This document shows, one piece after another, positions 11,974 through 64,000 of a DNA stretch of 64,000 nucleotides. Under the pieces are notes generated by a model, which searched no databases, was not told the origin of the DNA, and was given only the letters and a program-made list of their open reading frames with translations. How positions within the stretch are numbered: the stretch's first letter is position 1; each line of letters starts with the position of its first letter. Both the position numbers and the translations under genes were made by a program. Source of the DNA: Azolla caroliniana (taxonomy: Eukaryota > Plantae > Polypodiophyta); NCBI GenBank assembly GCA_043228905.1, contig JBHGNT010000011.1, positions 2,914,001-2,978,000 of the forward strand, given 5' to 3'.

Positions 11974-12006
<33 letters not shown>

Positions 12007-12142
12007 TTCTTCTCGATTCTTCCACTTCTTCACCATGCTTTTCTGTTTCATCTATCAACGAAATACCTTCCACGGAATTGTCAGGGAGTGTGTTTTCTTC
12101 TTGTTGAGGAAGAAGAAGGGCAGAGGTATTGCCCAAATCCAT
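11093..12142 (-). CDS. Highly acidic 349-aa ORF (poly-Asp), function unknown; weak resemblance to a Toc159-family A-domain; possibly a truncated gene
   Basis: Long D/E-rich ORF, CT-rich region upstream, (TCA)n at ~11975-12006. Further acidic reading-frame fragments with stops at 10670-11060 and a candidate acceptor near 10375. Confidence 0.55.
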
Positions 12143-12375
12143 GATGTCAAAACGCTTCCTTTTCTGAGAGTGTTACAGATTGAACATCGGACAAGAGGAA
12201 GTGTGGAGACAGGGCTTACCAGATACCCTGCTTCTCTCTCTTCTTATCTTCTCGGAGTCCCATAGTATGAACCATACGTACCCTACGTGCATTTGCGTAT
12301 GGTAAACACTCTCAAAGTATGGTAAATACCATACTTTTGTATTCATTATTTATTATAAGGTAAATTGTTTGATAA

Positions 12376-13881: not shown

Positions 13882-14032
13882 ATAAAGTAAGTCAGTTAAT
13901 GTAAAAAGTGTAAAAAAAAAACGTAAGAATGTTTTGATAACATACGCCTTCGTTTTTATTCGTATGAAAAAGAATGTTTGCCAATACATTCCAAGTATAT
14001 TACGTACTATGTTAGACTTTTGCTTGAGCCAA

Positions 14033-14080: not shown

Positions 14081-14166
14081 AATGGGTAAATACCCCATTT
14101 TTTTGTTGTAAACCATTTGTCTCATGGGCCAATTTTAGCCTTAGAAGACGTTAATATTTCTTTCTT

Positions 14167-14211
<45 letters not shown>
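14078..14211 (+). mobile_element. Extreme 3' fragment of RTEX-like LINE inside a (CT)n microsatellite
   Basis: ATGAATGGGTAAAT...GTCTCATGGGCCAATTTT.GCCTTAGAAGACGTTAAT followed by (TCTT)n(CT)n. Matches 49932-50045 and 54791-54885(-). Confidence 0.85.
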
Positions 14212-14215
<4 letters not shown>

Positions 14216-39039: not shown

Positions 39040-39697
39040 TGTCGTGAAGAATTTTGGCCAGAGGCGGAAACCGGAAAATATTGGCTACATCGGCGGGGTG
39101 CAGCATGTGCGCTCACCCTTGTACATTTAGTGTGAATAATGAGGGCGCCTTTATGGCGCCAAAGAGTAATCAAGTCGGGACAAGAATCCCATGTAATAAG
39201 GGATTTATCCCACAATGCTACGCATCCCTCTCCTTGTTCTATAAAAGGGAGGGAGCGCCCTTTGTGAAGGGGTTGCCCATTTTTGCATTCATAGGGTATA
39301 CCGTTAGAGGAAGAAACGTTCTCTCTTCCTCTTTCTTTCCTCTTGTTTATGGTTTCGTTTCTCTTCTATGCTTCTTCCTCTTCATCGTTTTGAGTATCGA
39401 GCCTTGGCATCTCGTGTTCCTGTTTTTTGCCTGTTCTCTGTGCAAGATCCCGCTCGGCACGACAAGCCTGAGAGCTCCCCGACCGGCGGCTTGGCAGTAG
39501 ACGACTATTGTAACCTGAGCTACTTAGGTCGGGCTCGATACCAGTATTGTATCTTAGTCTTGTTACATATACATGGAGGGTTCTGCGCACCGGTGTTTGT
39601 GTGGGTGTTTTGGTGTTCTCTTACCTCCGTTCTTGTACAAAGGGCGTGAGTTGGGTTGGTGTGGTGGGAGTGTGTGGGTGTGAGTCGGTGTCAAGTG

Positions 39698-39728
<31 letters not shown>

Positions 39729-42700
39729 ATTCGGTTGCTTCTGGAACGCGTCCGGAATCATCTTCACGGCTTCCCTTCTTCCCTCGTCCGAGACCCCCGT
39801 GGTCCCGCCCTTCTACACGCACGCGCGAAACTTCGTGACATATTTGGTGAACCCGACGTGAAGGGTGGCAAGGGAGGATGGAGTTGGAAGAAGACAACTT
39901 TGCGCAACTTTTTGTTGAAGCGATGAGGGAGTTTGGATGAGCAACAACAAGGAGAGAGACGGCGCAACAAGCTGTCAAATGCGTGGTCGAAAGAGTCGGC
40001 CGGTTCAATGGCCGTTTCGGTCGAGTCATCCACATCCGAATCACGCTCCATCCGAATCGGAATGCCGATCTTTTCGTGCCGCCTCCTCGCAGGCCGTTTC
40101 CCATCCCCCTTCGTTGGCATCGTGCCAGGACTCCTCGTCGGCACCTTCCTTCTCTCCGGTCTCATGTCGGCACACGGGCTCGACCACCGGAGTCTCCAGA
40201 ATCCGCATGGAGAGCTCTTCTGAAAGGCGCGAAAGACCAGGGACGGGCTATAGAGCCCGATCGGTAGGGCTCGGTTCGGTACGATAGTGCCGGCGCGGAA
40301 GAGGGTGCGAAAAAAATTGGTCTCTTTTACATGAGGACACAAGCCGGCGCGGAAGAGGGTGAAGGCCGCAAATCTGGAAGCTAGCGGTCGAGGTTGCGGA
40401 GAGAGACTAGCAGGTTTTGGACACTGCTGCCCAAAACTCCGGACATTGGAGAATCAAGTGCAGGCGGCACTTGATCGATCGAAGTCCAGACGCTTCTCAC
40501 CGAATGTGCTTGGGGAGCGGTTCCCCGAACGAGCGTCCGCAAATCATTACGGGACGGAAACACTACGTCTTATCCGGAGACTCAGGCAGCCGACAACGAG
40601 CGCCGGCATGAGACCTAGAGAGATGGGAAATGTAGGCGGGTACGCGAGAAGGAGAGCAACGACGAGTTCGGGAGAAGTACAAAGGATGAAGAGGAGAACG
40701 AAGATCGGTGCTACGGAGATCCTCACACCGATCTGGCTGTCGGCCCGAGTCCTATAGGAGAGATTGGTGGCGACAAGAGAACGGGACCCGGCAATCCAGA
40801 GAATGACGAATGAGAACCGGGTGGAGCGGACTTCCGAATAACCATTCCGGGAGGCCTACGAAGAGGCTGGGAACACGGTACGTCAGTACCACGGGAGAGG
40901 GTGTGGAGCGAGCCACCCTCTCGGCTTGCGAAAGAAGGAAGACCCAGGATAAGGGTCAGAGATACGACGAGCCCGAGGAGGATCCTTCACACCGGATCCG
41001 AAGACTCCGGCAGTCGGCCCGAGAGCCGATGTGAGACCTAGAGTGACGATCGGTGGCGGCGAGGGGACGAAGGCAAAGAACTGCAGGCGGGCAAACCGAG
41101 GTCCCACGAAGATCCTCACACTGACCCGGCGGTCGGCCCAAGAGCCGGCGTGAGTCCTATAGGAAAGGATGGTGGCGGCAGGTGAACGTGTTCAGACGAT
41201 GGAAAGCAGAGAAGGAAGGTATTAGGCTGGCGAAGCGGCTACGAACCGAATCAGACCGACTGGCAAGGTCACGGGCATAAGGAAGTCCGGTCCTACGGGA
41301 TCCCCACACCGAACCAAAGACTCTGGCAGTTCGGCCAACGTGGCAACATGAGACCGAGAGAGAAGGTTGGTGGCGGCGGGAAACGGGACCCGGCAACACG
41401 AAGGTGGACCCGGCTACGCGGAAGACACGAGGAGAGTCGCGAAGGACTCCGACAAAAGACACCCGAATTTCGGCAAGTTGAGAAACGGAGTCCGGTCCTA
41501 TGGGACCCTCACACCGATCCGGAGACTTCGGCGGCCGGCTAACGGGAGTCGGCTTGAGACCTAGGGAGAAGGACGGTGGCGGATCAGGAGTCGGTAAGAC
41601 AGGGGGTGGACGAAGTGCGAAACCCTTACCGCCGGTTACGGTTTCGGAAGGAGCTGGTAGGGGCAAACACGGGGAGGTGTGTCGGGCCGGAAAGGCACAC
41701 CTGGGACGGAACAAGAGTCTCGCAAGTGGCCATCGCGGGCCGGATCGAAGCGTGACTACGGGACGGTGTTTGGCACAGGCGGTGCCGAACAAAGGAAGTG
41801 GAACGTGCCACATGGAGGTGTCGAAGTAGAAAGGCGAGCACGAAGAATGGGTTGCACGGTTCAGAGGTAGTGCATAGAAGGCCAGGGAAGGATCCTCCAC
41901 ACCGTTCCGAGGACCATGGTAGTTCGAGCCGATGTGGCGGCGTAAGACCATGGAGAAGGAAGTTGGCGGCGAGAGGACGAAGGCAACGCGAAACAACATG
42001 GGACGGCAATCAAGACAACCCGAATGGTCGACGGAGGCCAAGTGGGCCACTACGGGCGTTCCTCAAGCGGAGGACATCGGGCATACGGCGGAGAGCGGAG
42101 CGTGCATACGGCCGAACAAGGGCTAGCGAAAGTACGTGTACTACGGAGATCGCGGCGAAGGACCCATCGACGGGTCGAACGAGCCTACGGGTAGGTAAGC
42201 GCGAAGGAAGAACCAAAGCCGAAGATTCAAACCGGCAGCGGGGCCGGGATGCGGATTACAGAAGACCGGTTTCTCACCGGCCGAAATCTCTCATCCTTCA
42301 CCGGATTTGGCACGTACCGGTGGACGTGCGGTTTGGTGGGGGCGGATGTCGTGAAGAATTTCGGCCAGAGGCGGAAACCGGGAAATATTGGCTACATCGG
42401 TGGGGTGCAGCATGTGCGCTCACCCTTGTACATTTAGTGTGAATAATGAGGGTGCCTTTATGGCGCCGAAGAGTAATCAAGTCGGGCCAAGAATCCCATG
42501 TAATAAGGGATTTATCCCACAATGCTACGCATCCCTCTCCTTGTTCTATAAAAGGGAGGGAGCGCCCTTTGTGAAGGGGTTGCCCATTTTTGCATTCGTA
42601 GGGTATACCGTTAGAGGAAGAAACGTTCTCTCTTCCTCTTTCTTTCCTCTTGTTTACGGTTTCGTTTCTCTTCTTTGCTTCTTCCTCTTCGTCGTTTTGA

Positions 42701-43144
42701 GTATCGAGCCTTGGTATCTCATGTTCCTGTTTTCTGCCCGTTCTCTGTGCAAGACCCCGCTCGGCACGACAAGCCTGAGAGCTCCCCGACCGGCGGCTTG
42801 GCAGTAGACGACTGTTGTAACCTGAGCTACTTAGGTCGGGCTCGATACCAGTATTGTATCTTAGTCTTGTTACATATGCATGGAGGGTTCTACGCACCGG
42901 TGTTTGTGTGGGTGTTTTGGTGTTCTCTTACCTCTGTTCCTGTACATAAGGGCGTGAGTTGGGTCGGTGTGGTGGGAGTGTGTGGGTGTGAATCGGTGTC
43001 AAGCGCTCTCTCTCTCTCTCTCTCTCTCTCCCGTTCGGTTGTTTCCAGAACACGTCCGGAATCGTCTTCTCGGCTTTCCTTCTTCCCTCGTCCGAGACCC
43101 CCGTGGTCCCGCCCTTCTACACGCACGCGCGAAACTTCGCGTCA
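39040..43144 (+). mobile_element. Non-autonomous gypsy-type LTR element with two ~800-bp LTRs (39040-39840, 42347-43144)
   Basis: Direct TG...CA repeats, roughly 95-97% identical by eye. PBS TGGTGAACCCGACGTGA (Trp-type), PPT GGTGGGGGCGGA, short gag N-terminal remnant (VVERVGRFNG), no pol. Flanks AACGG/AACAA (imperfect TSD). Confidence 0.9.
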
Positions 43145-46600: not shown

Positions 46601-48303
46601 GCATGTATGCAATGGATCCGAATATCCTAACATGTGATAGATCAAGCTTCTTTCCAAAAAACTTCTCGTGCGGGGTAACCTCATGCACGCCGGATGTTGT
46701 ACACCGGTTCATTAAGTAGATGGTTGTGTTGGTGTCTTCTGCCCAGTATGACTTTGACATGTGCTTCTTGTTAAGCATGGCCCATGCTACTTCGAGGATG
46801 TGCCGATTCTTTCATTTGGCTACTCCGTTCTGTTGTGGCGTATGTCGACACGAAAACTTGTGCCGAATTCCTTCTTTCTGGAGAAAAGCCGAAAATTTGT
46901 CGGAGAAGTACCCTTTTTCTCCATCCGAATGAAGACATTGTACATGTGGACCTATTTCCTTTTCGACTCCACTCTTGAATTTTTGGAAGTTTTTGAACAC
47001 TTCGCTCTTTTGTTGCATGCGGTAGATCCAAGTGTGGCTGGAGAAGTCGTCGATGAAGGCCACGTAGTATTGACATCCACTGAATGTAGCCGTCTGAGCT
47101 GGTCCCCATACATTAGAATGAATTATGTTGATGGCTCACGTTCCTCTCCTTCGGAAATGGGTGCCGATGTTGCTTGCCGAATTGGCATGCTGCACATACG
47201 CCTTCAATCTCTTTCTCTTTGAAGGTTGGGATTGTGATAACGAACTCCTTTCAATTACATTGACTTGAGCTTTTGGAGGTTGATGTGGCAAATCCGCTTG
47301 TGTGACAACTCTATGTTGGTGTCGCCTTTGATGCCTTTTGCAAACATGGCCGATTTCATCTCATGCTACTCAAGAATGAACATTCGACCCTCTGTTCATC
47401 CGCGAGCGATGAGTCGACCCTCTTTCTTAATGAAGCCTTGATTAAATCAAAACAATTTGGCCGACGGAGACCAAATTCTTCATAATGGTAGGTACATGCA
47501 AGACATTCTTAATGTAAGTTTGGTTAAACCTTCTTTTCCAAATGGAACATTGCCGATGTGCCAAATCGGATGAGTAGTGTCATCTTTGGTTTCGACATAG
47601 CCGGGTCGGTCCGACTCTCGAAGTTTTGATGAGACGTCATATGGTTTGAGGCACCAGAATCGACGAACCATACGTCTTTCAAACTAGAGGCACTATTTGA
47701 AGTAGAGGCCGATATAGAATTTGCTCTATGTCTCATCGCAAACATTATGCCACGATCGTCATAGTCAGAGTTGGTGGCGTAATTGGTGAGTTGTCGGCTA
47801 GTGGAAGTCGACTCACGCATCTTCTTTTGGCACTCTTCTTCGTGGTGGCCGATTTTTCCACAATATCTGCATTCGATCGAGTTTTGTCAGATTGAACCGG
47901 AATGGAAGCTCCCCCCTTCTTCCGAAGGTTCCTTGGTGGCTTCCGTCTTGTTGCTGAAATTACAAGTTGTTTTGCAAGTAGGGGCTCGTCTGCCTTGTCT
48001 TTGGCCGAATCGGCCTCTTGCTCGGCCACCTCCGTTCGAATGTGTGTAGAGCATGTGGCCTTCCGAGGCATTGCCCCTTGTTTGAACATGGTTCTCTTCG
48101 ACCAACAACATGGATTGAAGATCGACAAAAGAGGGAGGATTCTCCTGTGCTAGTACGACGGTACTCATTGTGCCGAACTGTGGTGCAAGGCCGCCAAGGC
48201 ATATTTGCTTCATCTCATCATCAACCACATTGACGCTTATTGAGCCAAGCGAGTCACAAAGCTCCTTGACTTCAAGGTGTAGTTTGTGATGGACATATCC
48301 CTT
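43621..48303 (-). mobile_element. Decayed copia (3' LTR ~43621-44364, RNase H, RT, INT, PR, partial gag)
   Basis: KHIKVHYHFIRERV, LYVDDL, YKARLVAKGYAQ, HQMDVKN, TPQQNGVA and WFVDSGASNHMT. PPT next to LTR at 44365. Outer LTR boundary less certain. Confidence 0.9.
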
Positions 48304-48450
48304 TGTTGGATATTATTCAACTCTTGGTGGAGTTGATGAAGCGTAAGTGTATGCGGAAACGTATGAGGATCTGTCTTAGTTCATACTCAGAAGACAACAC
48401 AGAAAGAGAGGCAAAGATATACACACTTTTAAGATTTAATGGAAGCTCTG

Positions 48451-50045
48451 TTGGAGTCACCTTTAGTGCTCGCTCAGGTAAATTCTCGATGACCCAGGCA
48501 GCCAAAGATAGGCTAACGAGAGGGTATGCATCCCTCTCACTCTTAGAGAGACAATGCCATCAGGCATACTTTCAAGAGCCACGGACTAAGGGATGGCTTT
48601 TTGACTCATTAGTGACCCCGTCCCTCATGTATGCATCAGTAGTATGGGCTCCAGGTTTACCATCTTTCATGTGGACGCAATTAGAGACCTTTAGTGACGA
48701 TGTTATCACGTCAACTCCGAAGCAAATCGACAGTACCACATGACATTATTAGAGCTGAGTTCAGTCTACCCCCGATGTTAGTAGAAGCACTCTTTCAAGT
48801 GGTAGTTTTTATTCATCGGATACATAGCCAACCACAAGATAGGATATCCCGTCGAGCCTTTGAGGCGTCTCGATCTTTATATGTGTCTGGCGACACTAAC
48901 TCTTGGTATAGCATCGTGGTGAGTTGGCTCCGTGCGAACGGCATAGACATTAATAACCTACCTCCCCTTAAGTACAACCATGGGACTGATCAAACTTTAA
49001 TCTCTCACGAAGATCGTAATAAAGTGATACGCCAAGAAATATGGCAAATTTACACTCGATACAAATGGATCACCCCACGAGAACCACTCCCATCTAAAAT
49101 GGTGTACTATAAGGAACACTTCTTGCGCTTCTCTACGCTAGGCTTTATTACACGACCAAGATATTTAGATACATTCTTATCAAATGCACTAAGGGTGGCC
49201 ATTGGACAACTTAGGATATCATCTCACCAACTTGAGATTGAGAATGGTCGGGCTAATAGAGTCCCTAGAGAGGAAAGGTTATGTAGGTTATGCCACATAG
49301 AGATAGAGGATGAGTATCACTTCACATGCAAATGCCCAACTTATGCCGAGATACGAGCGGAATACCAAGACATACTAGGACCCTCTCCCACCCTCTCCAA
49401 ACTATTAGATACCCCGAATGTAAAGAGACTAGGTAGATATATCTTAGACCTAAAACAACATAGGGAGAATAAATTACAAAGTGCTAACGATAACCCTCTT
49501 AGTATTCATCACCATGTAACTAGTGTAATTTTTCAGGAACAAGGGGAGACGATGAATGTGGATACACTTACGCCGCTCGGCCTCTCCCTTGAGGAAGCAG
49601 AAATGCAAAGAACAACGAAACGCCCTCGAATGTTGGGCTTCAAAACAAGTCAACGTGGAGTAGACAAGATTAAGAAGATAAGGGAACGTGAGCTACGTCG
49701 ACTAGAAGCTATGGTTGGGGTACCTCTTACATGGGGACCACAGGCCACATCCACATCGCAACCCTTTGACCTTCCGCTTCTCTTCGAGAGACTTGGATGG
49801 AAATGAAAATAACAATTGTATAACACCATTTTCATTGTAGTAGAACATGTTTCTATATAAAACATGTTTGTTATTTTTTAGAACTATTTAGCTTAAACTC
49901 TATTTTTCATCTTATTTTTATTTTTACTTCGATGAATGGGTAAATATCCCATTTTTGTTGTAAACCATTTGTCTCATGGGCCAATTTTGGCCTTAGAAGA
50001 CGTTAATATATCTTTCTTTCTTTCTTTCTTTCTTTCTCTCTCTCT
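48451..50045 (+). mobile_element. 5'-truncated RTEX-like LINE, TSD CTCTG
   Basis: ORF 48694-49806 is homologous to the ORF2 C-terminus at 54987-56549 (QLRISSHQLEIENGR...CRLC..EDEYHFTCKC). (TCTT)n(CT)n tail. CTCTG at 48446-48450 and 50046-50050. Confidence 0.9.
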
Positions 50046-50061
50046 CTCTGAGACTCGATAT

Positions 50062-52813
50062 TGAAAAGAATAGCGCGGAATACTGCTCGGCCACAACCGA
50101 GCCTTAGATCACTTCTTTGAGAATCAAACACAGGAATGGGGTTGGGGATAAGTACACGTACACACACGAACAATAGAGAGTACACATGATGTTTATGTGA
50201 AAAACCCTAATAGGGAAAAACCACGGGAGCCCACAAACTCCAAACTATCACTATATGAGAAAGGTACAATCAGAGACTCGGAGGCAACAACCTTGAGCTC
50301 TGTATCTTTGCCAAACAATGGTTATAATAGAGTATTGCTCTGTATCTCCTCTCTCGCTCTCTTCCTCTCTCTCTATACAACAATTATACACATACAACAA
50401 TATGACAACACTATCTACTGTGATTGCCCTAGGTCATATTTATACTCATATGAACTTAGGGCTATTTGCAAATATAGCCTCAAGAGGCTTACTCAAAACA
50501 TATTTACAAATATGTCTTCTCTTCCGGTTCTCACCAGGTCCATCCGATCTAGTTTTCGGATCTCATCGGGCCCTCTTTATTCATAACCGGATCCCATCCA
50601 GAGGGATCGACTTCCCAACAATCTCCCCTTTCACTCCGGCATGGGATGTCTCGTCAGCCCGATCCGCTTACGACACGCGTCCAACTTGTCGGTTTTCAAC
50701 ACCTTGGTCAGCATATCCGAGCTGTTCTCCTCTGTGTGGATCTTTGTCAGCATGAACTCTTGATCTTCTACTCTCTCCCGGATCTAGTGGTAGCTCCGCT
50801 GGATATGTTTCATCCTGGAGTCGTAGGCCGCGTTCCTCGTAAGGTGGATGGCACTTTGACTGTCGCAGTAGAGCCGATATTCCTCCTGTTGGATCCCTAG
50901 CTCTCTGATGAAGCCCTTCATCTAGATTATCTCCTTGCTAGCTTCCACAACTGCCATGTACTCCGCCTCCGTGGTTGACAACGCAACCGTCTTCTACAGC
51001 CTCGACTGCCACGAAATAGCTCCCCCTGCATAAGTCATGACATATCCGGATGTAGACTAGCTGGTATCCACATCAGCCGACGTATCCGAATCGGTGAAGC
51101 CTTCCAAGAGGGGTTTACCGGAGCTGAATCGAAGGCACATAATCAAGGTTCCTTTCAGATACCAGAGTATCCACTTGACTGCGTTCCAGTGCTCTCTTCC
51201 AGGATTGCTCATGATTCGGCTAACTACTCCGATAGCGTAACCGATGTCCGGCCGGGTACACACTATCGCATACATCAAGCTCCCGATGGTAGAGGCATAT
51301 GGTATCTTCATCATATCTGTCTTCTCTGCCTTTGTCTCCGGGCTTTTCTTTTCAGACAACTTGCAATTTGCCGGAAGTGTCGATCCGACCGGTTTCACCT
51401 CCGACATGTTGAACCTTTGAAGCACCTTTGTCATGTACTTCTCCTGTGACAACCACAACAGTTTCTCTGACCGGTTCCGGATAATGTGCATTCGCAATAT
51501 CTGTCTTGGCGGACCCAAGTCTTTCATTAAGAAGGTCCGGTTCAGAGCCTTCTTTAGCACCCGAATCTTGCCTTGTTCTTGTTCGACGATCAACATATCA
51601 TCCACATATAGGAGTATTAGGAAATCTTCTCCGACAAATTTCTTCACAAACATGCAGTGATCGGCCTGCATCTTGTGGTACCCTTCGTTTGTCATGAGGA
51701 GTCGAACGTCTAGTACCATTGCAGGGGAGCTTGCTTCAATCCATACAAGCTCTTCTTCAACCAGCACACAAGGTGCTCCTTCCTTTTCTTCTCAAATCCT
51801 TCCGGTTGATGCATGTAGATCTCTTCTTCGAGGTCGCCATGTAGGAATGCCGTCTTGACGTCTAGTTTCTCTAGCTCGAGGTCCATGCTTGCCGCTATGC
51901 TTAATACCGTCCGGAGCAAAAATCTCGTCGAAGTCTACTCCCTTCTTCTACTGGAAACCCTTCACTACAATTCGGGCTTTGTATCTTGACGGGTTTCCGG
52001 CATCTCCCGGTTTTAGCTTGTACACCCACTTGTTTCGGAGTGCTCTCTTCCCTTTCTACAACTTCGTCAGTTCATATGTGTGGTTCTCATGCAGAGAATC
52101 CATCTCATCCTGCATGGCACTCAACCACTTGCGGTTGTGGATGTCTCTCTTTGCTTCTACGAAGCTTTCCGGCTCCCCCTCATCGGTTAGCAACACATGC
52201 TCTGCATCTGGAAATCTTTGGGGGCACTTCTCTCTCGGAGAGGGCGTCTCCGTCCTTGGTTTTTGACTATTGGTTCCTCCATTTGTTCCTCATCCTCATC
52301 CGATTCGAGATCTTGTCCGGTTCTGGTGTCTTCTTCTTCTTCGGTCGCTTTGGTTTCTTGTCCTCATTGGGCCGGCTCATCAAGTGTCATCCGGTTGCCG
52401 GCCAACATCCAGTTTTCAACTGGGTAGGTCCTTGTGTCCTCAAACTGGTTTTCATTGGATGATTTGGAGTTCATCTTCTTCTCCGACTCCTAGTCGGCAA
52501 TGGTCCTGTCTTCCATGAAGACTATGTCCCGACTTCGGAACACCTTCTTGTCAACCATATCCCACACCCGGTAACCGAACTCATCATTGCCGTATCCAAG
52601 GAATATGCATGGTCGGGACTTCGGATCCAGCTTTGCTCTCTTGTCCTTCGCCACATGCACGTAAGCGAGACATCCGAACACCTTTAGATGCCGGTAGGAT
52701 ACGTCCTTACCGATCCATCACGTAAGTTGCCGTCATCAGTGCCTCAACCCAAAACATCTTGGGTAACTTGGCATGTGCAAGCATGCTCCGGACTCTCTCC
52801 ATTATGGTCCGGT
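50062..52813 (-). mobile_element. Tnt1/Tork-like copia, 3' half (3' LTR 50062-50620, RNase H, RT, INT end)
   Basis: [45 protein letters not shown] at 50621-50630. LTR related to 22690-24174. Confidence 0.9.
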
Positions 52814-53618
52814 TGTTAGGAGCAATACTAAGACAAAGAAGTATTGTCAGGAATAGTACTAAGACAGGGAAGGAATTAGTACTAAAAGATGAGGATTAGT
52901 ACTAAGGGAGGTGTAGAACTCTCGAGAGAAGGAAAGAGTGAGTGAGAGAGAGAGAGAGAATGATGATAACAAAATATATATATTATGTTAAGAGAATATA
53001 CAATAGTAGCTAGGAGGCTTAAGATTGGCATTGAACTAATTTGGTTCGAAATAATGCCTTGTGCCTCCTTTTATAGTGTTCTTAGGAGTACTCTTGAAGT
53101 TTCTAAAATGTTCTAGAGAAATATGGAATATACATCAATTTTCTATAGTAAAACTTAAATGAAAATATTTTTTGTATTACAACATATAGTCTAATGGTCA
53201 AGAGTTTGACCCATGTAACATAAGGTCATGGGTTCGAGTCTTGCCATATCATGACATTATCCTCCCTTTAAAATGATGAGTGTCACGATGGGACTATATC
53301 CTAGCCAATTGACTAAATAGTAGAGCTTGTTGCGAACAATCTTGAAATCGAGGATGGCGGCAATCGAGCTTGACGTCGATTTAACACACGAGCATTAGAA
53401 AATGCCTCTAGAAGATCCCTCTAAAAAATGCCTCCATTGTGTAAAAGAGTCTACTATTGCTAATAGCTCCTTATCATGAATTTCATGGTTGATTTCGGCG
53501 GCGTCAAACTTGCGTGAGTGGAAAGCCACAGGATAGAGCTTTTCATCATCGCCTTGTTGTGACAAAATGCTACCCAACGTGAAATCTGACGTGTTTGCTT
53601 CGATGATGAATGGTTTTT
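52814..53618 (-). mobile_element. Tcn1-like chromovirus gypsy: 3' LTR (52814-53256), PPT and RNase H fragment
   Basis: TGT...ACA LTR; PPT GGGAGGATAA(-); [43 protein letters not shown]. Confidence 0.8.
53185..53246 (+). promoter_or_regulatory. tRNA-like Pol III A/B-box cassette at the U3 end of gypsy LTR
   Basis: TAGTCTAATGG (53187) ... AGGTCATGGGTTCGAGTC (B box 53231) ... CCA. Confidence 0.65.
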
Positions 53619-53707
53619 TCTGTTATTAACCGTTCGGTTGTAGCAAGGAGTGCGGGCGACTTTGTGATATAGTAGATAATGTAATAGTAAAAGAAGAGAT
53701 TCTAAGC

Positions 53708-53760
<53 letters not shown>

Positions 53761-53789
53761 CAAGAAGTTTTCATTAAGATGAAAGGAAA

Positions 53790-53844
53790 GACCTTATGCA
53801 GCAAACTAGTTTCGCTCGCTTAGAGCTCATCAGTGCAAAAGGTC
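53790..53844 (-). ncRNA. Minimal type I hammerhead ribozyme in left pLTR
   Basis: - strand GACCTTTTGCA-CTGATGA-GCTC-TAAGC-GAGC-GAAA-CTAG-TT-TGCTGCATAAGGTC: complete core, 4-bp stem II, palindromic stem III. Confidence 0.85.
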
Positions 53845-54304
53845 ATGAAAATACAAATGGTGGTTTATATAGGATGTTGAGAATGGGGAAGGGAGGAGAA
53901 AGAGGGAAAGTATAATCATAGTGAGTGGGGTGTAATAAGAGTGTAAATAGATGGAAGGTTGTAAGGATTTAAGGTGGAAGATCTTGATGATAGGGGGGGT
54001 GGTGATAAAGGGGGAAATGAGTTGGTGATAGGAAGATTGATAGGGTGATAAGACAGATGAGTGAGTGGGATATGGTGATAAGGGGAAATGAATGAGTGAT
54101 AGGGTATGTAATTATAAGTACGTAAATATAAGATGGTGAGAAGGTGAAAATTAAGGAAGGGAATAAGAAGGGAAAGGAAGGAAAATGAAAAAGGAAGTTA
54201 GTAAGAGGTGGTGGGGAGAAGGTTTGAGGGAAACGAGGGAAGAGAGAGAGTGTATAAAAAGGTAGTGAGAGGTATAGGGGAGGGGGAAGGGAGAAGGGAG
54301 AAAA

Positions 54305-54520
54305 AAGGGAGAGAGAGAGAGAGAGAGAGAGAGAAGGAATGAGTGAAGATATAAAATAGTAGTAAGGGAGGGAGGGAGAGAGAGAGAGAGAGAGAGAAGG
54401 AATGAGTGAAGATATAAAATAGTAGTAAGGGAGGGAGAGAGAGAGAGAGAGAGAGAAGGAATGAGTGAAGATATAAAATAGTAGTAAGGGAGGGAGAGAG
54501 AGAGAGAGAGAGAGAGACAA
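54305..54520. repeat. ~58-bp tandem repeats with (GA)n in PLE 3' UTR
   Basis: (GA)n-AGGAATGAGTGAAGATATAAAATAGTAGTAAGGGAGG three times. Confidence 0.85.
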
Positions 54521-54672
54521 AAATATAGATTTTAGTGAAATATAAGGGAATGATAGGGGAGTATAGATAGGAGGGAAGGGGAAAAAAGAGATGTGTGTGA
54601 CTAGTAAATAGTAGTAAGGGGGAAGGAGGGAGGAACGAGGAAGGGGGATAGATGAAGGGTGAGAAAATATGT

Positions 54673-54800
54673 TTATGGGGGTTCTAAGATGTTTTTAGTT
54701 TTGACTAGAAAAGAGTGGAGGTTTTTGGATTTTGTCCAACAAATAATGGGTTTAGGGAAATGTTGTAGTTGGGGATCTAATTGTAGGCTAGAAAGAAAGA
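54673..54800 (-). pseudogene. C-terminal end of the PLE RT ORF, separated by the LINE insertion
   Basis: SLQLDPQLQHFPKPIICWTKSKNLHSFLVKTKNILEPP*, matching the post-thumb LQxDP...PxxxxxxxxNLxxxLV motif of PLEs, followed directly by a stop. Confidence 0.75.
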
Positions 54801-54986
54801 AAGATGTATTAACGTCTTCTAAGGCCAAATTTGGCCCATGAGACAATTGGTTTACAACAATAGAGTATTTATCCAGTCATCATAACTAAAATAAAATTAA
54901 GTAAAAAAATAGAACTTAAACTAAAAGAGTTCTAGTAGTGTACAATATGTAGTATACTCGAAAGTGACTATACACTAAGCCTAATT

Positions 54987-57900
54987 TTATTTCCACCCAA
55001 GCCTCTCGAAAAGAAGTGGGGGGTCAAAGGGTCTTGATGTGGGTTCCAATGTAGAGAGTGCCCTAGCCATGGCTTCTAGGCGGTGTAGCTCACGTTCCCT
55101 TATTTTCAATATTGCTTCCACATCACGTCGAGTTGCTTTGAAACTCGGCACCCGAGGACGTCTGGTTCTTCTCTGGTTTTCTGCCTCATCAATGGAAAGG
55201 CCGAGTGGTGCAAGTGTGTCGGCATTCGTTGTCTCCTCAGGTTCCTGAAAAACTTCATTTGTTACATGTTCGTGATCATTAGCAACATTATTGTCAACAT
55301 TTTGTAACTTATTCTCTCTGTGTTGTTTTAGCTCTAGAATGTATTTGCCTAATTTCTTTATATCTAGAGTATCTAATAGTTTGGGGAGGGTGGGAGACAG
55401 ACCAAGTATGTCTTGGTATTTTGCCCGTATCTCGGCATAGGTTGGACACTTGCATGTAAAGTGGTACTCATCCTCTATCTCTATGTGACATAACCTACAT
55501 ATCCTTTCCTCCCTAGGGACTCCACTAGTACGGCCATTTTCAATCTCAAGTTGGTGAGATGATATTCTAAGTTGTCCAATGGCAACCCTTAGTGCATGTG
55601 GTAAGAATACATCTAGATATTTTGGCCGCGTGATAAAACCTAACTCAGAGAAGTGCATGAAGTGTTTCTTATAGTACGACATTTTAGATGGGAGTGGCTC
55701 TAGTGGGGTGATCCATTTACACCGAGTGTAAATTTGCCATATTTCTTGGCGTATTACTTTATTGCGGTTCTCATGAGAGATTAAGGTGTTATCACTCGTG
55801 TGGTTGTACCTAAGGGGAGGTAGGTTATTAATGTCTAGACCATTCTCAAGAAGCCAACTCACCATCATGCCATACCATGAGCTAGTATAGCCGGACTCAT
55901 ACAATGATCGAGAGGCCTTAAAGGCTTGATGAGATATTCTATCATGTGGTTGGCTATGTATCCTATCAATGAAGACTACAAGTTGAAAAAGTGCCTCTAC
56001 TAGCATTGGGGGTAACGTGAACTCGGCCCTAATAATGTCATGTGGTACAGTCGATTTGCTTCGGAGTTGGCGTGATAGCATCATCACCAATGGTCTCTCT
56101 AATTGCATCCACAGGAAGGATGGTAATCCTGGAGCCCAAACCGCTGATGCATACATGAGGGAGGGGGTCACTAATGAGTCAAAGAGCCACCCTTTAGTCC
56201 GTGGCTCTTGAAAGTGTGCTTGGTGGCATTGTCTCTCTAGGAGTGAGAGGGATGCATGTCCTCTCGTGAGTCTATCCTTCGTTGCCTGTGTCATCGAAAA
56301 TTTACCTGAGCGGGCACTAAAAGTGACTCCGAGATAGACGTACGATCCAACCACCTCGAATGGGCTATGGGAGATAGTTAGGTGACACTTAGCTCTAACT
56401 TGGGCCGATGTGTGGAAGATAAGGACTTTCGTTTTCCCTAGATTCACTACCAATCCTCGTTGTACACAAAAGTCATCTAAGGCATTAAGGTGCCTCTGTA
56501 GGTCGTGTTCGGATTCAGAGAGCAAAACTATGTCATCCGCATAGAGCAAGATACGAACCTACGTATCCCCAAGGACCACTCCGGTGCCTCCCTCATGAGC
56601 AATAAAATCTGTGATCTCATCAATGTAGATCCCAAAAAGCGTCGGTGATAGGGGGCAACCTTGTTTTACACCAATAGTGCTAGTGAAACGATTGGATAGG
56701 CCACCTGGGCATCAGACACACCCGGACACTTGTTCGTATAGTGCGTAGATGGCCCATACCATATCATCTGGTATCCTCAAGCTTTTAAGTCTATCAAACA
56801 ACCGCTCTCTAGGGACTGTGTCAAAGGCTTTGCGGAAGTCCACAAAACAACAATATAATTTCTTCTTGCGAGCCTTAGTTTGGTCAATTAGGCATCTAAG
56901 TGTGAAGATATGATCAATAGTGGACAAGGCTCGTCTAAAGCCAGCTTGTTCAGGTGCACGAAGGTTTAGGGTCTCCATGTAGTCGCTAAGCTCTGCTTCC
57001 ATTACTGCACCATATAACTTAGCAAGGGTATGGCCTATCATAATGGTCCTATATGTATTTGGGTCCATGGGGTCCCCCCCTTTATGTATGGGGGCCATTG
57101 TATTCATAGTCCACTGTGGTGGAAAATCCTTCGCAAGGGCACGATTGAAGATTAGAGTTAGCAAGGGAGCTAGGCACTCTCTCGCATATATAATGTGTTC
57201 TGCTCGCAATCCTGTGTGGTCCATGGACTTCCTATGTTGTAATTTCTTTATGACCTTCATGATCCTAGAGGTCGTGAAAAGTGTCCCCCTGGTAGGCCGG
57301 GGTGTGGAAGGCATTGGAAAGGGTGGTTGGTTTGGGATTTGGTAAAGTCTCTCTGTATATGTGTGCCAAGTTTCGGGATCTTCGATGGGTGTTTGTGGTC
57401 TTGGCTCTCGTAGTCTCTTCCATGCCGTGGCGCAATCGCTACTCATGAGCATATGGTAGAGTTCCCAGTATTGGGATGCCTCCCACGCTCGTCTCTTACG
57501 ACGTGTCATCTTACGCATTTCTTTGCGAGCTTGTATGGAGGTAATACTACCATTGAGTTGCGATACTGTAAGTTGTCTATGTAGGTCCCTACAATCCTTG
57601 TCATACCATTTATTTTGTGGCATTGATCCTGATCTACCTTGATTTGAGTGTTTTGTATATGGGAAACTGCTAGCTGTTGCGGAGTGAAGGATGTGTGTGA
57701 GTTTTGTACTAAGGCTTTCTAACGGTAGGGAGGGATCAAGGGAGGGGAGATGGGCCTGAACATGTTGAGAGTATATGTCAGAGAGCTCATGTGTGAAATG
57801 TATTGTGGTGTGATGGCATGGTTGACTAGACTTGGTGACCTTAGAGATATCACATTTTAGCTCGAAGTATAAGAAACTATGGTCTGCGCCAATAGGGCAT

Positions 57901-58718
57901 GGGGCCACTCGGAAGGAGTTAATCATGTGGGTAGCTTCAGGGCGCCCTATTAGATAGTCAACTGTGCTTTCCCCTCCTCCATGTGGGAAACATGTGAGCT
58001 CTTCCGAGCCCGGCCACTTAGCTAAACCATTATATATGACCATCTGGTGCCGACTGCCAAGTTCGAGCAGATGATGGCCAAAGCTCGTGGCGTCCGCACC
58101 TTGATCCTTTGATCTACGTGTGGTGCCTATGTCTAAAGGATCAACATTTACCCTTTCTAGGTTTCTATTCATCTGAAATACTCTGCATTGTCGGGATTGG
58201 GTTCTCGCATTGAAGTCTCCTACAAGAAATACTTCTCCTTGGGAAGAATATCGGATTATGTCATCTGATAGGGGTTCGTATGGAGAAGGCCCATGTGGCA
58301 TTCCTTCATCGACTAATCTCGTCAAGCCACCAATATTATAACGGGATCCTTTTGGGGGAAAGTAACAAATGGCGAAAAATACTGCATGGTCTTTGCTTGT
58401 GGAGACTTTCACCCACATAAAACGAGCTTCTGGGTCTATCTTCATTATTTCTATCCTATTATGTAGCTCTCTACGAAATAGTATCGCGACACCTCCAAAT
58501 CCCCTAGTAGTGTGTCGACGTGAGGTTTGTCTAAAAGAGGACGCCCAACGGAATCCTTCGACCCGTGGGAGTCCTCTATTTGGGCTCTGATGTGTTTCTA
58601 CCAAGAAAAGTATATCAGATACCTTTAGTATCTCCTCTAGGCGGCCAGGGTGTGCCCAGAGTGCGCCATTACAATTCCATAGGGTCATCCTAAGTGCATT
58701 TTCTGTCACATGGGCCAC
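54987..58718 (-). pseudogene. LINE ORF2 (APE endonuclease + RT + C-terminal Cys/His motif), two in-frame stops near 56560 and 56712
   Basis: WNCNG, LVETH, GDFNAR, STVDY, ADH; QAGFR, FVDFRKAFD, GVKQGCPLSPTLF, LYADD, YVYLG. Confidence 0.92.
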
Positions 58719-58724
58719 ACGCCG

Positions 58725-59537
58725 TCAATTAGTAGTGCGATCATTTATGATCACTCGCCCGTCTCGGTAAAAGGCGCGATGGCCTTCTTTACGAGCTTGC
58801 ATAACTCATGGCATACAACTCTTGCGATGCTCAATTTGCATCTTAGTGAGGTCTTCATCGATATAGATGGGGTCCCCATCCATTCCTCAAAGGATTGGTC
58901 TCTTCTTAAAGAAAGTGATTCTAGAGTCTAAGTCTTTAAATTGAAGGACTAAGGCTCTCTTCCTAGTTGTGTCACGCCCGGCCCTCCATGCTTTGGTGAT
59001 AGGTAGGGCCTCTGTGTACCCTAACATTTTCCCAAGTGTTTGTGCGTCCTCATTTGGGGATGCACCTTCCTTGAGCCCAGTGACACGTACATTTAAGCGT
59101 CGGGCCTGACGCATTTTCTCTTCTTCAAGGGTGGTATTAACAATATTTTCATCTTTTATTTCTTTTTTAATGTTTCTTTTAACCACATCTACCCAACCCG
59201 TTTTAGCTAACTCTATGTTATTATTAAATTCCTCTTTAACTTTTTTAATTTCGTCCTTTATATCCTCTATAGAGGATATTTCACCGTCTTCTCGAGATAC
59301 CTCGATGTCCTTATGTTGTTTTTTAAGGTCGATGTTTTCTACTTTAAGTTGTTCTATTTCGGCCTTGAGGGCATCTTTTTCCTCTCTATCTTTTTTCTTG
59401 TGGGTTTCGGTGTCTTTTACCCATTTTTTCATATCCATCTCTATTTTTGTTAAACGATTAAACATATCTAAAAAGTCCTCCTTACTTATAGCCTCGTCTT
59501 GTATATCCTTATGTTCCTTAGTCCGTCTAGACGTCAT
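58725..59537 (-). pseudogene. LINE ORF1 (coiled coil + RRM-like + IYIDEDLT domain), two TGA stops
   Basis: Coiled coil, RRLNVRVTGLKE; reading through the stop at 58887 gives PIYIDEDLTKMQIEHR. Confidence 0.8.
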
Positions 59538-60013
59538 TGTGGTGTCAATAAGAAAAAAAAGGTAAAATAAATGGGTTCGAGACTTAGCCGAGTTTGTGTG
59601 TATGTCGCAATCACATCGGCATTTTGTAGCACGCGACGAGCACACCAAAAGAACCCACCCACGAACTCGTCAAGAAAATGGCACTTCACCACATCAAGAG
59701 AAAACGGAGAAGAAACACCCCGTGACGGCGACGGTGACAGTGGCAGTCGTCAAACGACGGTAGACGACGGCAGCAGACGGCAGACGACGGAAGACGACTG
59801 CAGACTGTAGAAGACGGCTGTAGACGACGGCGACGACGACGACGACGACACTAGCTGGCGACAGCAACGGCAGAGAGAGACGAGGAAGAGAGAGAGAGAG
59901 AGAGAGCAGACGGCGACGGTTGCAGCGGCTGCAGACAACGGCTGTAGACGACGGCGACGAGAGCGACAGCAACGCAACGGTAGAGAGAGCCGTTAGAGAG
60001 ACGCAACGCAACG

Positions 60014-63000
60014 GCGAATATCTAAGTTTAAAGATAGTGGGCGGGGTGGTTTTTTTAGTTTTTTCTTTGAAGAGGAGAGTGTGTTTAAGGGAGTAAGGGT
60101 GTTTTCTAAAGTTCTTTAGAATAAAATGCGTGGGATAACCTCGGGCCCTAGGTCTCGTAAAGAATTTCTTTTGCATATTTAAATAACCTAGGGATGTGCT
60201 TTCTCTAACCATATATCTTTTTAATTCATTCGAAACGAAACTATTTTTAACATGGAGAGGGTGATTGGAGAAATAAGGGATGTATTGATATGTATTAAGT
60301 GTTTTTTGAAAGCAATTAAAAGTGAATCTATTATTATCTAAGTTAATCCATAAGTCTAAAAAGGGTAGTTTCGTGTAAGAAGTATGTATGGTTAGTTTGA
60401 TAGAGTTTTGAGTAGTGTTACTATAGAAGTTTAGGTATTCGAAAAGTTGGGGTTTAGTACCAGTCCAAACGCCAAAGGCATCATCAATATACCTAGTGAA
60501 ATAGAAAAGGTGGGGTGATGGATTGGAATTTTCTAGATATGAGAGGAAGAGACATGCGTAGACAACGGAAAAATTACTGCCCATGGCTGTTCCTTTTACC
60601 TGTTGATAAATTTGGTTGTTGAATTTTAGGAAGTGGTATTCTAAAGTGAGGGTGCTAAGGGTATAAATCAAATTAGTTTTTTGGTTCGAAAAGTGGGGGG
60701 AAATAATATTTTTTAGGGCTAAGAGTCCTAGTTTTGGTGGGATGCTAGGGTAGAGTGATTCAACATCAAAAGAAAAAATGAAGCTATTGGGTGGTGTTAT
60801 AAGTTGTTCTAAGGTTTGGACAAGGGAATGGGAATCCCTAAGATATTGTTTTTGACGTAGAAATATAGGGAGGAGTTGGTGGTGAAGCCATTTAGACGTT
60901 TGTTCAAATAATGAACCATTATATGAGCAAATTGGTCTATAGCTAACAGGGGTTTTATGTACTTTTGGTAGGAAGTACATATTAGGTACTGAGTAACCTT
61001 TAGGAGGTTTGTGTAGGATACATTGTATTACTATGAGAGACAAGATATTAAGGTTACGGTTGACTATGTCATGTAGTCGACTTAAAAGTTCTTCTAATGG
61101 GAGACTATTAACTTTTTTATATGTAGTGATGTCAGATAAATGTTCTAGGGCTTTATCTAGGTATGTTTTTTTATCGAGGACACAAACTCCAATGTTTTTG
61201 TCCGCTGGTAGGATGATTATTTGTTTGTTTTTTCTAAGGCTGGTTAGTGCTATTTGGAGGTGTAGTGGTATTTTGGTATTAGGCAGTATATTATTATGGA
61301 GGTTTGTGGAGAGAGAGATATTGTGTTTATGGAGTATAGACTCTAATGGTGGATACTTAGTAGGAGGGTTCCAATTCGGGTTGGGTAGTTTGAAGGGATT
61401 AGAGGGGGGAGAGTTGAAGTCTTTAAAGAAATGTTTAAGTCTCAAGGATCTACTAAGGTTTTGGTATTCTTGAAGAATGGATTGGTTAGTAGGTGGGGGG
61501 CAGGGGGGTATAAACTTAAGTCCTAGGTTTAAAAGTTTGATTTCTAATTTACTAAGGGCGTAATTTGAAAGATTATGAATTTTGCTTTTTAAGATGGGAG
61601 TCGTGTCTACGGTGGGAGTAAGTGGTTTCCAAAACTTGTATCTCAGCCTTTTAGTGCGTGATTTAGTGTAAGGGGAGAAGGGGAAATGGGAGTTTTTTCT
61701 ACCTAGCCACATGTACGTATCACACGTTAAAGGGGGCCTATCTAGTATGTAAAAGAGACATTTACACGGGTGTAAGGCGTGCTTAAACCGTTTACTAATT
61801 CGTTTAGCACGCCTCGTTACACGTTTTTTGGTTTAGACATATAAGACGGAGTTTTAGTTATGGGGTGACGGGGGGGTTTGTAAGAGTTGTGTGGGTTTGA
61901 TTTATTATGTGGGTGGGTGGTTGGGGCAGATAAGTTAAAATTAGGAAAAAGGGGAGGGGTGTTAGATGTAAATAGGGAGGGGTTCTTATTCAAATTATGT
62001 GAAAATAAGGGGGGGGTGGCATGTGTGGAATTATTAAGAATGGAGAGGGGGGCATGGGCGGAGTGTGTGAAAATATTAGGGGGTGTTGGGGCTATATTAG
62101 AGATTGGGGGAGGGGTAAGACCTTAATTATACAAAGTTTTGGGGGGAAACTTAGGGTGAGGATCATTACAAAAAGGGGGCATGGGGTTAAATAGGGGAAT
62201 ATTGGAAAGTAACGGGGGGGGGGGGGGGGGGGGTATACAAAGAATTAGTAGAAAGTGTGGGGGGAGGGTTTTGAGAGTGAGTGGGGTATGGGTGTGGTGG
62301 CCATGAATAAGGAAAGGGAGTTGGGCTCTTGGTGTGTAAAAGGGATGGGTTGTGTTGTTGCCCCAACGTAGGAGGGAAAGAAAATTGAGGGGGAAAGGAG
62401 GGATGAGAGGTCTCGAGGGGCTGAGTATACAGAGGAGGGCTGAGGAGCAGAGGAGGAAGGTGAGAATGGGGGAGATGGACTCTATTGTAATCGAATGTAT
62501 GACTAGAGGCCATACCCTCGTTGTAGCCCGCCTGTGCATTAATCCTGTCGGACTGATGTTGGTTGTGTTGGGCCGACGAGAATCGAGGAGGTGTGGTCGT
62601 TGAGTGGAGGCTATGGATCAGAGATGGAGGTGCTCTGTGTGCAGCATGTGGCCAAGCATGCATATAGTGGTCGATGTCTCTGTTGCCGCCAAAAAGTGAT
62701 GATGGTGGTCGTTGATGGAGATCTTGTGGTGGATGATTATAGCCGTTGATGTCTCTATTGCCGCTGTTAAGTGATGATGGTGGTCGTTGATGGAGATCTT
62801 GTGGTGGATGATTATAGCCGTTGATGTCTCTATTGCCGCCGAAAGTTGATGATGGAGGTTGTTGATGGAGATCTTGCGGCGGATGATGCGAAGGACCTGT
62901 ACGAAGGGAAGCATGAGTGGTAAAGTTGGAGTTCGGGTTATGGTGAGGGTAGGTCGAGTTTGTGCTCGGGCCTACCGAAAGCTCGTTGGATCTATAGAAA

Positions 63001-63345
63001 AGTACTCTTGGGTTTCGATGGTTGAGGTTGTGAGGATATGGGTTCATGCTAACTTCATTATTATTTATGTTGCAGATGAATTGAGGATGGTTGCGGTGCT
63101 TGGATGATCCGCGGTGAATTTGTGGTGGAGGAGGCTTCGGGTTTGTTATTTGAGGCCAAGGGTTAGGGTTTGTGTTAGTGTTAGTTTTTAGGTTGGGAAT
63201 TGTTTTAGAGTTAGGGTTGGGATTAGGGTTGGGGTTTGTTCTCAAGTTAGGGTTAGGGTTATGGTTTGTTCTCATGTTAGAGTTAGGGTTTGTTCTCAAG
63301 TTAGGGTTAGGGTTAGGGTTTGTTCTCAAGTTAGGGTTAGGGTTT
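60014..63345 (-). pseudogene. PLE long ORF: Asn/Pro/His-rich N-terminal extension + basic patch + RT
   Basis: ORFs 62187-63386, 62123-62539 and 59694-61712 join through two frameshifts and one stop. KKRVTRRAKRISKRFK precedes the RT. No GIY-YIG motif seen. Confidence 0.75.
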
Positions 63346-63586
63346 CCCCTTATCACCATATCCCACTCACTCATCTGTCTTATCACCCTATCAATCTTCC
63401 TATCACCAACTCATTTCCCCCTTTATCACCACCCCCCCTATCATCAAGATCTTCCACCTTAAATCCTTACAACCTTCCATCTATTTACACTCTTATTACA
63501 CCCCACTCACTATGATTATACTTTCCCTCTTTCTCCTCCCTTCCCCATTCTCAACATCCTATATAAACCACCATTTGTATTTTCAT

Positions 63587-63641
63587 GACCTTTTGCACTG
63601 ATGAGCTCTAAGCGAGCGAAACTAGTTTGCTACATAAGGAC
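63587..63641 (+). ncRNA. Minimal type I hammerhead ribozyme in right pLTR
   Basis: CTGATGA (63598) GCTC-TAAGC-GAGC GAAA CTAG TT; stem I GCA/TGC plus CCTT/AAGG. Confidence 0.85.
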
Positions 63642-63671
63642 TTTCCTTTCATTTTAATGAAAACTTCTTGA

Positions 63672-63702
<31 letters not shown>

Positions 63703-63790
63703 CTTAGAATCTCTTCTTTTACTATTACATTATCTACTATATCACAAAGTCACCCGCACTCCTTGCTACAACCGAATGGTTAATAACAGA

Positions 63791-64000
63791 TAAATATGAG
63801 CCAAAATAGGAGCTGATGTAAATGCCATCTTAAGACCCTCAAAAGCCATGTTTGTGCCTTTAGACCAAACGAACGATTGTCCCTTCCTAGTGAGTTGTGT
63901 GAGAGGCAGAACAAGCTTTGAGTAATCCTATATAAACTTGCGGTAGAAATTGGCAAAGCCTAAAAAGCATTGCACATCTTGAAACGAACGCGGAGTCTGC
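63791..64000 (-). mobile_element. Upstream part of the same gypsy (RT thumb/connection)
   Basis: VQCFLGFANFYRKFI...PLTQLTRKG..FVWS...LKMAFTSAPILAHI, contiguous with KPFIIE at 53618. Confidence 0.9.

Follow-up and report, generated by a model that had tools for sequence, protein, structure and literature searches.

A Penelope-like element without an endonuclease and with two outward-facing 3′ ends inside a gypsy frame

The window analysed here is a stretch of 64,000 nucleotides from contig JBHGNT010000011.1, and near its end, between positions 53620 and 63789, lies a Penelope-like element (PLE) that splits the open reading frame (ORF) of a gypsy element. It is a dead copy, and its reverse transcriptase (RT) was later broken by a long interspersed nuclear element (LINE). 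The whole element consists of a long arm, read from 63345 to 53620 on the minus strand, which stands head to head with an inverted copy of its own last 447 bp. At both outer termini, 53620 and 63789, the next base is ambiguous; the bounds of 53619 and 63790 given in a first-pass annotation of this DNA are corrected accordingly. Once the nested LINE is subtracted, the long arm measures 4,497 bp. In 5′ to 3′ order it begins with a 5′-truncated and frameshifted ORF1 remnant (61817–63345), overlooked in the first-pass annotation, and continues with the N-terminal 566 amino acids (aa) of the RT, or ORF2 (60013–61712), the LINE (about 54784–60012), the last RT codons (54673–54783), and a 3′ untranslated region with tandem repeats containing (CT)n (54089–54672). 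It is completed by a TATA-like box (53864–53871), a hammerhead (53801–53836), and a (CT)n tract, after which come the invariant motif, a hairpin of 4 bp, and the terminus, the last stretch (53620–54088) being the 3′ end or pseudo-long terminal repeat (pLTR). All of these parts, the LINE included, are on the minus strand.

The LINE holds an ORF1, an APE endonuclease, an RT, and a (CTTT)n tail (Pfam Exo_endo_phos and RVT_1). It entered the PLE without a target site duplication (TSD) and deleted about 53 bp, or 18–20 codons, of the RT thumb, as seen from the gap against L001, a related locus to which the window copy is 98% identical over 2.8 kb. Because these bases are gone, excising the LINE does not restore the RT ORF; an RT frame reading straight across the site, which the removal of 54791–60013 had been expected to rebuild, is ruled out.

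The short arm (63343–63789, plus strand) meets the long arm in a TTT common to both (63343–63345) and repeats its 3′ parts, namely a TATA-like box (63560–63567), a hammerhead (63595–63630), the motif (63755–63765), and the hairpin (63770–63781). Thus, the inverted, outward-facing pLTRs with one hammerhead each that had been claimed for this element are borne out. The two arms are 99% identical over 333 nt and 88% identical over the distal 122 nt. Beyond the outer ends, the same gypsy frame continues on the minus strand. Its downstream part (KPFIIE..., 53398–53619) matches Pfam RT_RNaseH_2 positions 28–96 (E 4e-21), and its upstream part (63790–64000), identified from its translation (...FTSAPILAHIY), matches positions 1–25 weakly (E 0.06), with one further residue present. 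As positions 1–25 and 28–96 flank the insert, about one gypsy codon has been lost. PDB sequence searches with the gypsy pieces gave weak matches.

The hammerheads are predicted to be of the minimal type I, with a palindromic stem III and a GUU cleavage triplet. Taken alone, Rfam gives a weak HH9 match in the left arm only (E 0.52), and single-sequence folding of the two arms is not significant (z −1.66 and −0.48). Nevertheless, conservation among relatives makes the assignment clear on comparative sequence grounds. Among 67 related loci, which are short-read metagenome contigs with coverage of 1–27 according to their names and come mostly from one assembly series, 45 contain 46 hammerheads, all on the sense strand. 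The palindromic stem III, in four variants, is present in all 46, and stem I is paired in 41. The TATA-like box lies 38 nt upstream of the hammerhead core, a spacing kept in most relatives, and is likely to act as the promoter for the following unit in arrays. A short element that looks tRNA-like by eye apparently lies within the (CT)n behind the hammerhead in several relatives (L002:2540-2616, L046:2690-2721, and L060:2250-2444).

The RT has a Pfam RVT_1 match (on 60013–61829) and the motifs GLKF, DKN, FDVESLYP, GTAMGS, and YIDD, which include the DKN/DKG and N-terminal GxKF/Y signatures of PLEs. Its C-terminal piece, translated as ...WTKSKNLHSFLVKTKNILEPP and alignable to the end of protein P0001, ends with NLHSFLVKTKNILEPP at a stop codon in 54673–54675, so that a PLE-type RT ending right after the NLxxxLV motif, as first proposed, is confirmed. 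Neither CxC nor CxxC occurs in the 566-aa piece, the RT3–RT4 spacing is of the IFD-less kind, and 11 residues of this piece differ from unit 1 of L001. The C-terminal GIY-YIG that marks Neptune, Penelope/Poseidon, and Dryad elements is also absent. No GIY-YIG was detected by Pfam, or by a hidden Markov model (HMM) built from 12 GIY-YIG-bearing hits with Neptune-type domains and run over six frames of 50000–64000. The same HMM is positive in 47 of 335 retrieved proteins, all of them outside the land-plant clade described below, and is negative in all 30 proteins of that clade and in six frames of the 67 loci, with nothing below E 1. A GIY-YIG in intact relatives would have spoken against the first-pass annotation, and none was detected.

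Other comparisons agree with this result. An RT protein search gave 144 matches, of which the best 120 were considered; among the matches listed, those nearest to the window RT are intact, have about 580–640 aa, and end right after NLxxxLV, and the first protein with a Pfam GIY-YIG stands at rank 42, with 30% identity. Relatives at 92–98% identity have intact ORFs with the same end point. In the AlphaFold model of a 621-aa relative (mean predicted local distance difference test score 84.8), no additional domain is seen, and the TERT structure 3du5 ranks first among the fold matches (E 3e-12), the top ones being telomerase RTs. A nuclease hidden in ORF1 was considered and rejected. In relatives ORF1 has about 750–880 aa, and a low-confidence model of its N-terminal part, with the low-complexity C-terminal part left outside, is helical; no Pfam family, Atlas hit, or fold match at E 0.001 pointed to a nuclease, and a homologue search returned only four unnamed proteins. 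The PLE family of the window copy is thus, with very little room for doubt, endonuclease-less. A window copy derived by deletion from an endonuclease-positive element is hardly credible: a C-terminal GIY-YIG does occur in the 47 retrieved proteins, but they all fall outside the land-plant clade, and the closest relatives are intact with ORFs that end at the same place.

The position of the RT was examined in a 245-row FastTree and a 43-row IQ-TREE phylogeny, both unrooted and built without named Coprina, Athena, or TERT references; for the larger tree, 15 of 261 proteins were excluded for covering fewer than 300 profile positions or for lacking a profile match. In both trees, the window RT groups with proteins of Selaginella, Cryptomeria, and Ginkgo in a clade with 100% support. 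The sister of this land-plant clade is a pair of proteins, one of them from Closterium. The GIY-YIG-bearing proteins form a separate group, and the window clade lies inside a large endonuclease-less set; among 10 neighbouring clusters, eight had a missing or uninformative name. A search for relatives among viral contigs gave 84 pattern matches, none of which was confirmed.

Endonuclease-less PLEs of Selaginella moellendorffii, Sm1 and Sm2, were reportedly described by Gladyshev and Arkhipova in 2007. Like the window family, they lack an endonuclease, and telomeric repeats are joined to the window's relatives as well. By contrast, telomeric repeats are missing from the priming site of the window's subfamily, the host is probably a fern, many copies of the family are joined to non-telomeric DNA, and the window copy is inverted and two-armed. 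Sm1 and Sm2 are classed as Coprina-type (PMC13159263), and a row named "Selagine1" appears among the PLE RTs of Fig. S1 in PMC8557442. The RT3–RT4 region of Selagine1 (FDVESLYPSIP...GTAMGSNFAVVYAC), compared by eye, resembles both the window RT and the Selaginella protein P0025, which belongs to the 100%-supported clade of the window RT in a tree without named Coprina references. Judged from its sequence, the window PLE, which is of the two-ORF, endonuclease-less kind, probably belongs to the Selaginella (Coprina-type) land-plant clade, and its lineage matches an element already published.

Likenesses to other systems are also seen. Coprina-1_Alen and Athena/Terminon elements share with the window family two ORFs, a coiled ORF1, a hammerhead near the 3′ end, and direct repeats (PMC13159263), and the capping of 5′-truncated ends by telomere repeats described there has a counterpart in L013. 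However, 13 of 13 Coprina-1_Alen copies are at chromosome ends, while at least seven relatives and the window copy itself end on non-telomeric DNA. The PLE-X elements of Chara and Selaginella, which are Chlamys-derived, are likewise plant PLEs that lack an endonuclease, carry hammerheads, and insert at non-telomeric sites (PMC8557442). They carry CxC and IFD, both of which are missing from the window RT, and no rDNA target was seen for the window family. Endonuclease-positive Penelope, Poseidon, and Neptune elements resemble the window copy in having an inverted, 5′-truncated copy at the 5′ end, a pLTR hammerhead, and an internal AC-rich stem-loop at which reverse transcription starts; they differ in their GIY-YIG, frequent TSD, and 30–40 bp tail, none of which was found in the window family.

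The majority of the relatives stand in tandem, and some adjoin telomeric repeats, which the first-pass annotation missed. The units, of two ORFs each, stand head to tail in arrays, and three relatives are joined to (CCCTAAA)n. The invariant motif is found within 700 nt behind the hammerhead in 26 of the 67 loci, and what follows is the next ORF1 in 19 of them, (CCCTAAA)n in one (L012), and foreign, non-telomeric DNA in six. With L034, whose hammerhead is mutated, the foreign junctions come to seven, and with L061 the telomeric ones come to two; in L013, CCCTAAA repeats sit on the truncated 5′ end. Telomeric repeats are degenerate in L001, L005, and L006, and absent from the window copy and from L027, L033, L034, and L038. 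The zone behind the hairpin is AAACCCTAAACCC in L005, L006, and L012, where that subfamily is joined to telomere repeats, a mode of attachment published for Athena and Coprina (PMC8557442); in the window's subfamily the zone is rich in A and has no telomeric character. The AAACCCTAAACCC-zone subfamily is matched by a loose end in run X2, which would place this subfamily and the window copy probably in one organism. In Cryptomeria, there are eight near-identical, named, intact copies, seven of them on scaffolds of 15–53 kb, which is the pattern expected from arrays. Contig read depth was in the hundreds over the PLE, compared with roughly ten where an individual contig covers a junction and with tens of thousands over gypsy; this hints at a modest multi-copy PLE family and does not amount to a copy number.

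Some further observations concern telomere-like sequence. A degenerate AAACCCTAATCC repeat tract lies between the (CT)n and the motif at L001:4060-4255 and is absent from the window, L027, L033, L034, and L038; its presence in L001 and absence from its subfamily mates indicates that telomere-like sequence is gained or lost inside one subfamily. A TTAGGG-like run at 63150–63345 was considered as a cap added at a telomere or by telomerase and was discarded, as it is an in-frame Asn-Pro repeat of ORF1 and the telomere repeat of the relatives is CCCTAAA. The coding sequence of these Asn-Pro repeats (also at L001:5300-5560) is (AACCCT)n, a telomere word of the vertebrate type that differs from CCCTAAA, and the truncation point of the window copy falls inside the repeat. 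In L015 (671–5922) and L017, an intact two-ORF LINE of the L1 type faces a complete PLE unit in head-to-head orientation, the joint being at (CT)n.

The 3′ ends of the family fall in one short zone. Copies outside arrays all end about 20–35 nt past the motif, in a zone about 15–30 nt before the next ORF1 start, and both window ends, L034, and L038 terminate within a few bases of GGTTAATAAC. The motif itself (GCACTCCT, at 53644–53654 in the long arm) has eight invariant columns across 21 sequences and, with the hairpin (53628–53639), lies directly 5′ of the putative priming site. Covariation in the hairpin is high, with 83% of cells paired and 10 cells with double changes, values reached in 1 of 500 shuffles, although kinship among the sequences inflates this figure. 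At the six 3′ junctions with a close array-type relative (L025, L034, and L038 being left out), 25 of the 36 bases that follow the first mismatch match the element's own continuation, while farther out this is the case for 23 of 97. Such residual element-like bases are compatible with a target 3′ end that annealed imperfectly to the RNA.

As had been claimed for the split gypsy frame, no TSD accompanies the insertion, and regular TSDs, which would have told against the first-pass annotation, are absent from all four double-ended copies (one of them, L038, with an uncertain 5′ junction); the longest common word at the flanks has 4 nt, against a null mean of 4.2–4.5. At its 5′ end, L039 is fused in frame to a copia RNase H by way of sequence common to both. 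Non-PLE flank repeats are common to the window and six loci, from which it follows that the hosts are related and that the insertion sites are ordinary repeat-rich DNA. With respect to the inner junction of the window copy, there is the shared TTT, a GGG/CCC stem of only 3 bp, and no direct 5′ pLTR. Two of the 67 loci, L006 and L060, have a comparable arrangement, in which a minus-strand RT fragment adjoins a 5′-truncated copy, head to head and from a different subfamily. The L060 arms are 77% alike and nearest to different subfamilies (87% to L018 and 80% to L031).

Taken together, the conserved 3′ ends, the partial target homology, and the head-to-head arrangement in two more loci speak for priming at breaks. 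The window element probably entered a pre-existing double-strand break in gypsy, with cDNA primed from both broken 3′ ends, and the simplest reading of its arms would have each end of a single break prime on an RNA of its own; that both ends were primed simultaneously is something we infer. In such an event, the RT would bind the motif and hairpin of a read-through RNA from an array, and each T-rich broken end would anneal to the A-rich RNA zone through 2–5 bases. One cDNA would then extend for 4.5 kb and the other for 447 nt, both across an uncut hammerhead, and host end-joining would fuse the 5′-truncated cDNA ends via the shared TTT. The outcome would be two identical outward-facing 3′ ends, without duplication and with 1–3 bp lost, and the LINE would have broken the RT at a later time. 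Thus, the proposal of an endonuclease-less plant lineage that patches breaks survives as regards the missing GIY-YIG and the junctions; the lineage is not new, as it matches a Selaginella element, and, given its arrays and telomeric joins, it is not purely internal.

Several points weigh against priming at a break. The internal chromosomal site is established only locally, by gypsy on both sides and the lack of any tandem plant telomere repeat in the 64-kb window, and the window stops 210 bp past the element. Neither the outer nor the inner junctions of the window copy are bridged by any contig among the matches listed, an empty site can be deduced for this copy only, and there from codon spacing only, and the continuation sequence of the window copy is known from a single 10-letter loose end. 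The 6 of 6 matches at the L031 junction may reflect polymorphism, repeats can be collapsed or chimeric in short-read contigs, and the coverage of L060 is only about 2. Moreover, the microsatellites differ between the window arms, being (CT)n in the left and (GT)n in the right. An HMM made from Neptune-type domains could overlook a very divergent nuclease, and the APE-bearing LINE family, a possible source of nicks, is abundant in the same genome.

This last point leads to an alternative in which the nuclease is borrowed in trans, from the LINE APE or from the GIY-YIG of another PLE, and ordinary target-primed reverse transcription takes place at staggered nicks. The T-rich sequence of both window primer ends would suit it, as would the APE-domain LINEs, which occur in the window and have high read depth, and the inverted pLTRs, which are typical of endonuclease-positive PLEs. 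However, none of the four double-ended copies has a TSD, the flanks of the junctions vary by subfamily and track each subfamily's own template instead of one cut motif, the 30–40 bp tail of endonuclease-positive PLEs is absent, and Arkhipova 2013 observed no cross-mobilisation of the two PLE types in a rotifer. A borrowed nuclease is considered unlikely.

Two separate events, with a second copy arriving later at the 5′ end of the first, or the capture of array filler at the DNA level during repair, could also produce two arms, and we regard either as quite unlikely. The arms do differ in the microsatellite and at seven other sites, and the head-to-head arms of L006 and L060 come from different subfamilies. 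Nevertheless, five of the seven substitutions are C/T or G/A and three are at CpG, as expected after insertion; both arms end at the same base, which is also the terminus of independent copies; only about one target codon is missing between them; and DNA capture would not be limited by an RNA priming site. Very unlikely is an inverted arm made when an antisense template folds back and primes itself, a mechanism put forward for Penelope elements with an endonuclease and for head-to-head pLTRs with palindromic junctions (PMC3846280). The truncation of the L060 arms within about 35 nt of one shared position would agree with fold-back, but these arms are 77% alike and nearest to different subfamilies. 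In the window, the long arm has no direct 5′ pLTR to serve as template and the junction has no real palindrome, just the 3-bp stem, so fold-back cannot generate the short arm.

Priming at breaks may be taken one step further, in a possible but doubtful extension. The plant elements would carry a telomerase-RNA-like module, made of the invariant GCACUCCU, the hairpin, and a short template, and this template would have stayed telomeric in some subfamilies and drifted to a non-telomeric, A/C-rich one in others, so that a telomeric retrotransposon became a nuclease-free, genome-wide break patcher. A dimeric RT, assisted by hammerheads pairing through their palindromic stem III, would keep two RNAs together and capture both ends of a single break.

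Part of this picture is already in print, namely the clade, the inverted structure (for endonuclease-positive elements), and the idea of break priming. Inverted 5′-truncated copies are usual in endonuclease-positive PLEs, and how the endonuclease-less PLE-X insert is left open in section 9 of the same paper (PMC8557442). According to PMC3846280, deprotected telomeres or double-strand breaks can serve endonuclease-less PLEs as priming sites; these elements are largely confined to chromosome ends, and those of protists and fungi lack a direct or inverted repeat organisation. For an endonuclease-positive PLE, predicted to be dimeric, in vitro work shows that reverse transcription begins at an internal AC-rich stem-loop, that both strands are extended from this one site, and that uncut RNA is used (PMC11167929). 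Selaginella is the only plant named for telomeric PLEs in the accessible text of PMC12477314. No description of the fern-type family, or of two-armed internal copies of endonuclease-less elements, was found in a search that had most subscription papers and RepBase outside its coverage, and no junction evidence for double-strand-break priming by endonuclease-less PLEs was found in the literature searched. Junction evidence from an endonuclease-less plant family therefore appears to be new. Since its copies are young, its RNA priming site is defined, its telomeric subfamilies exist beside non-telomeric ones, and its TERT-like RT is compact at 620 aa, the family makes the question of internal sites testable by junction mapping and in vitro. 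In addition, telomere-type retroelement arrays now reach beyond Selaginella into probable ferns, into Cryptomeria and Ginkgo, and into a Closterium sister group, a range that bears on how telomerase-like enzymes move between chromosome ends and break repair.

Other features of the window are of minor interest here. At 33185–33490, AT-rich DNA holds a loose cluster of TTTAGGG-like words, about seven in number, together with one (TTAGGG)2; this is possibly a decayed interstitial telomere-like tract and is unlike the PLE loci. An acidic open frame of 359 codons on the minus strand (11093–12172) is probably a host exon and has no Atlas hit. Perfect inverted repeats of 269 bp surround a gag-like ORF with a zinc knuckle-like end (12630–13733) in the region 12373–13884, an arrangement unusual for a gag of the LTR type. 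The region 39040–43144 has young, LTR-like direct repeats (98% identity over 300 nt, spacing 3.3 kb) and a GC-rich interior without a recognised long coding ORF, and related DNA flanks L037. Finally, the LINE nested in the PLE belongs to a family with three copies or ends in the window (14100–14215, 48270–50060, and 54784–60012), all with a (CTTT)n/(CT)n tail; its nearest named relatives are from Adiantum and Riccia, and the nearest named hit of the nested copy is in Adiantum nelumboides, at 51%, a weak hint that the host is a fern.

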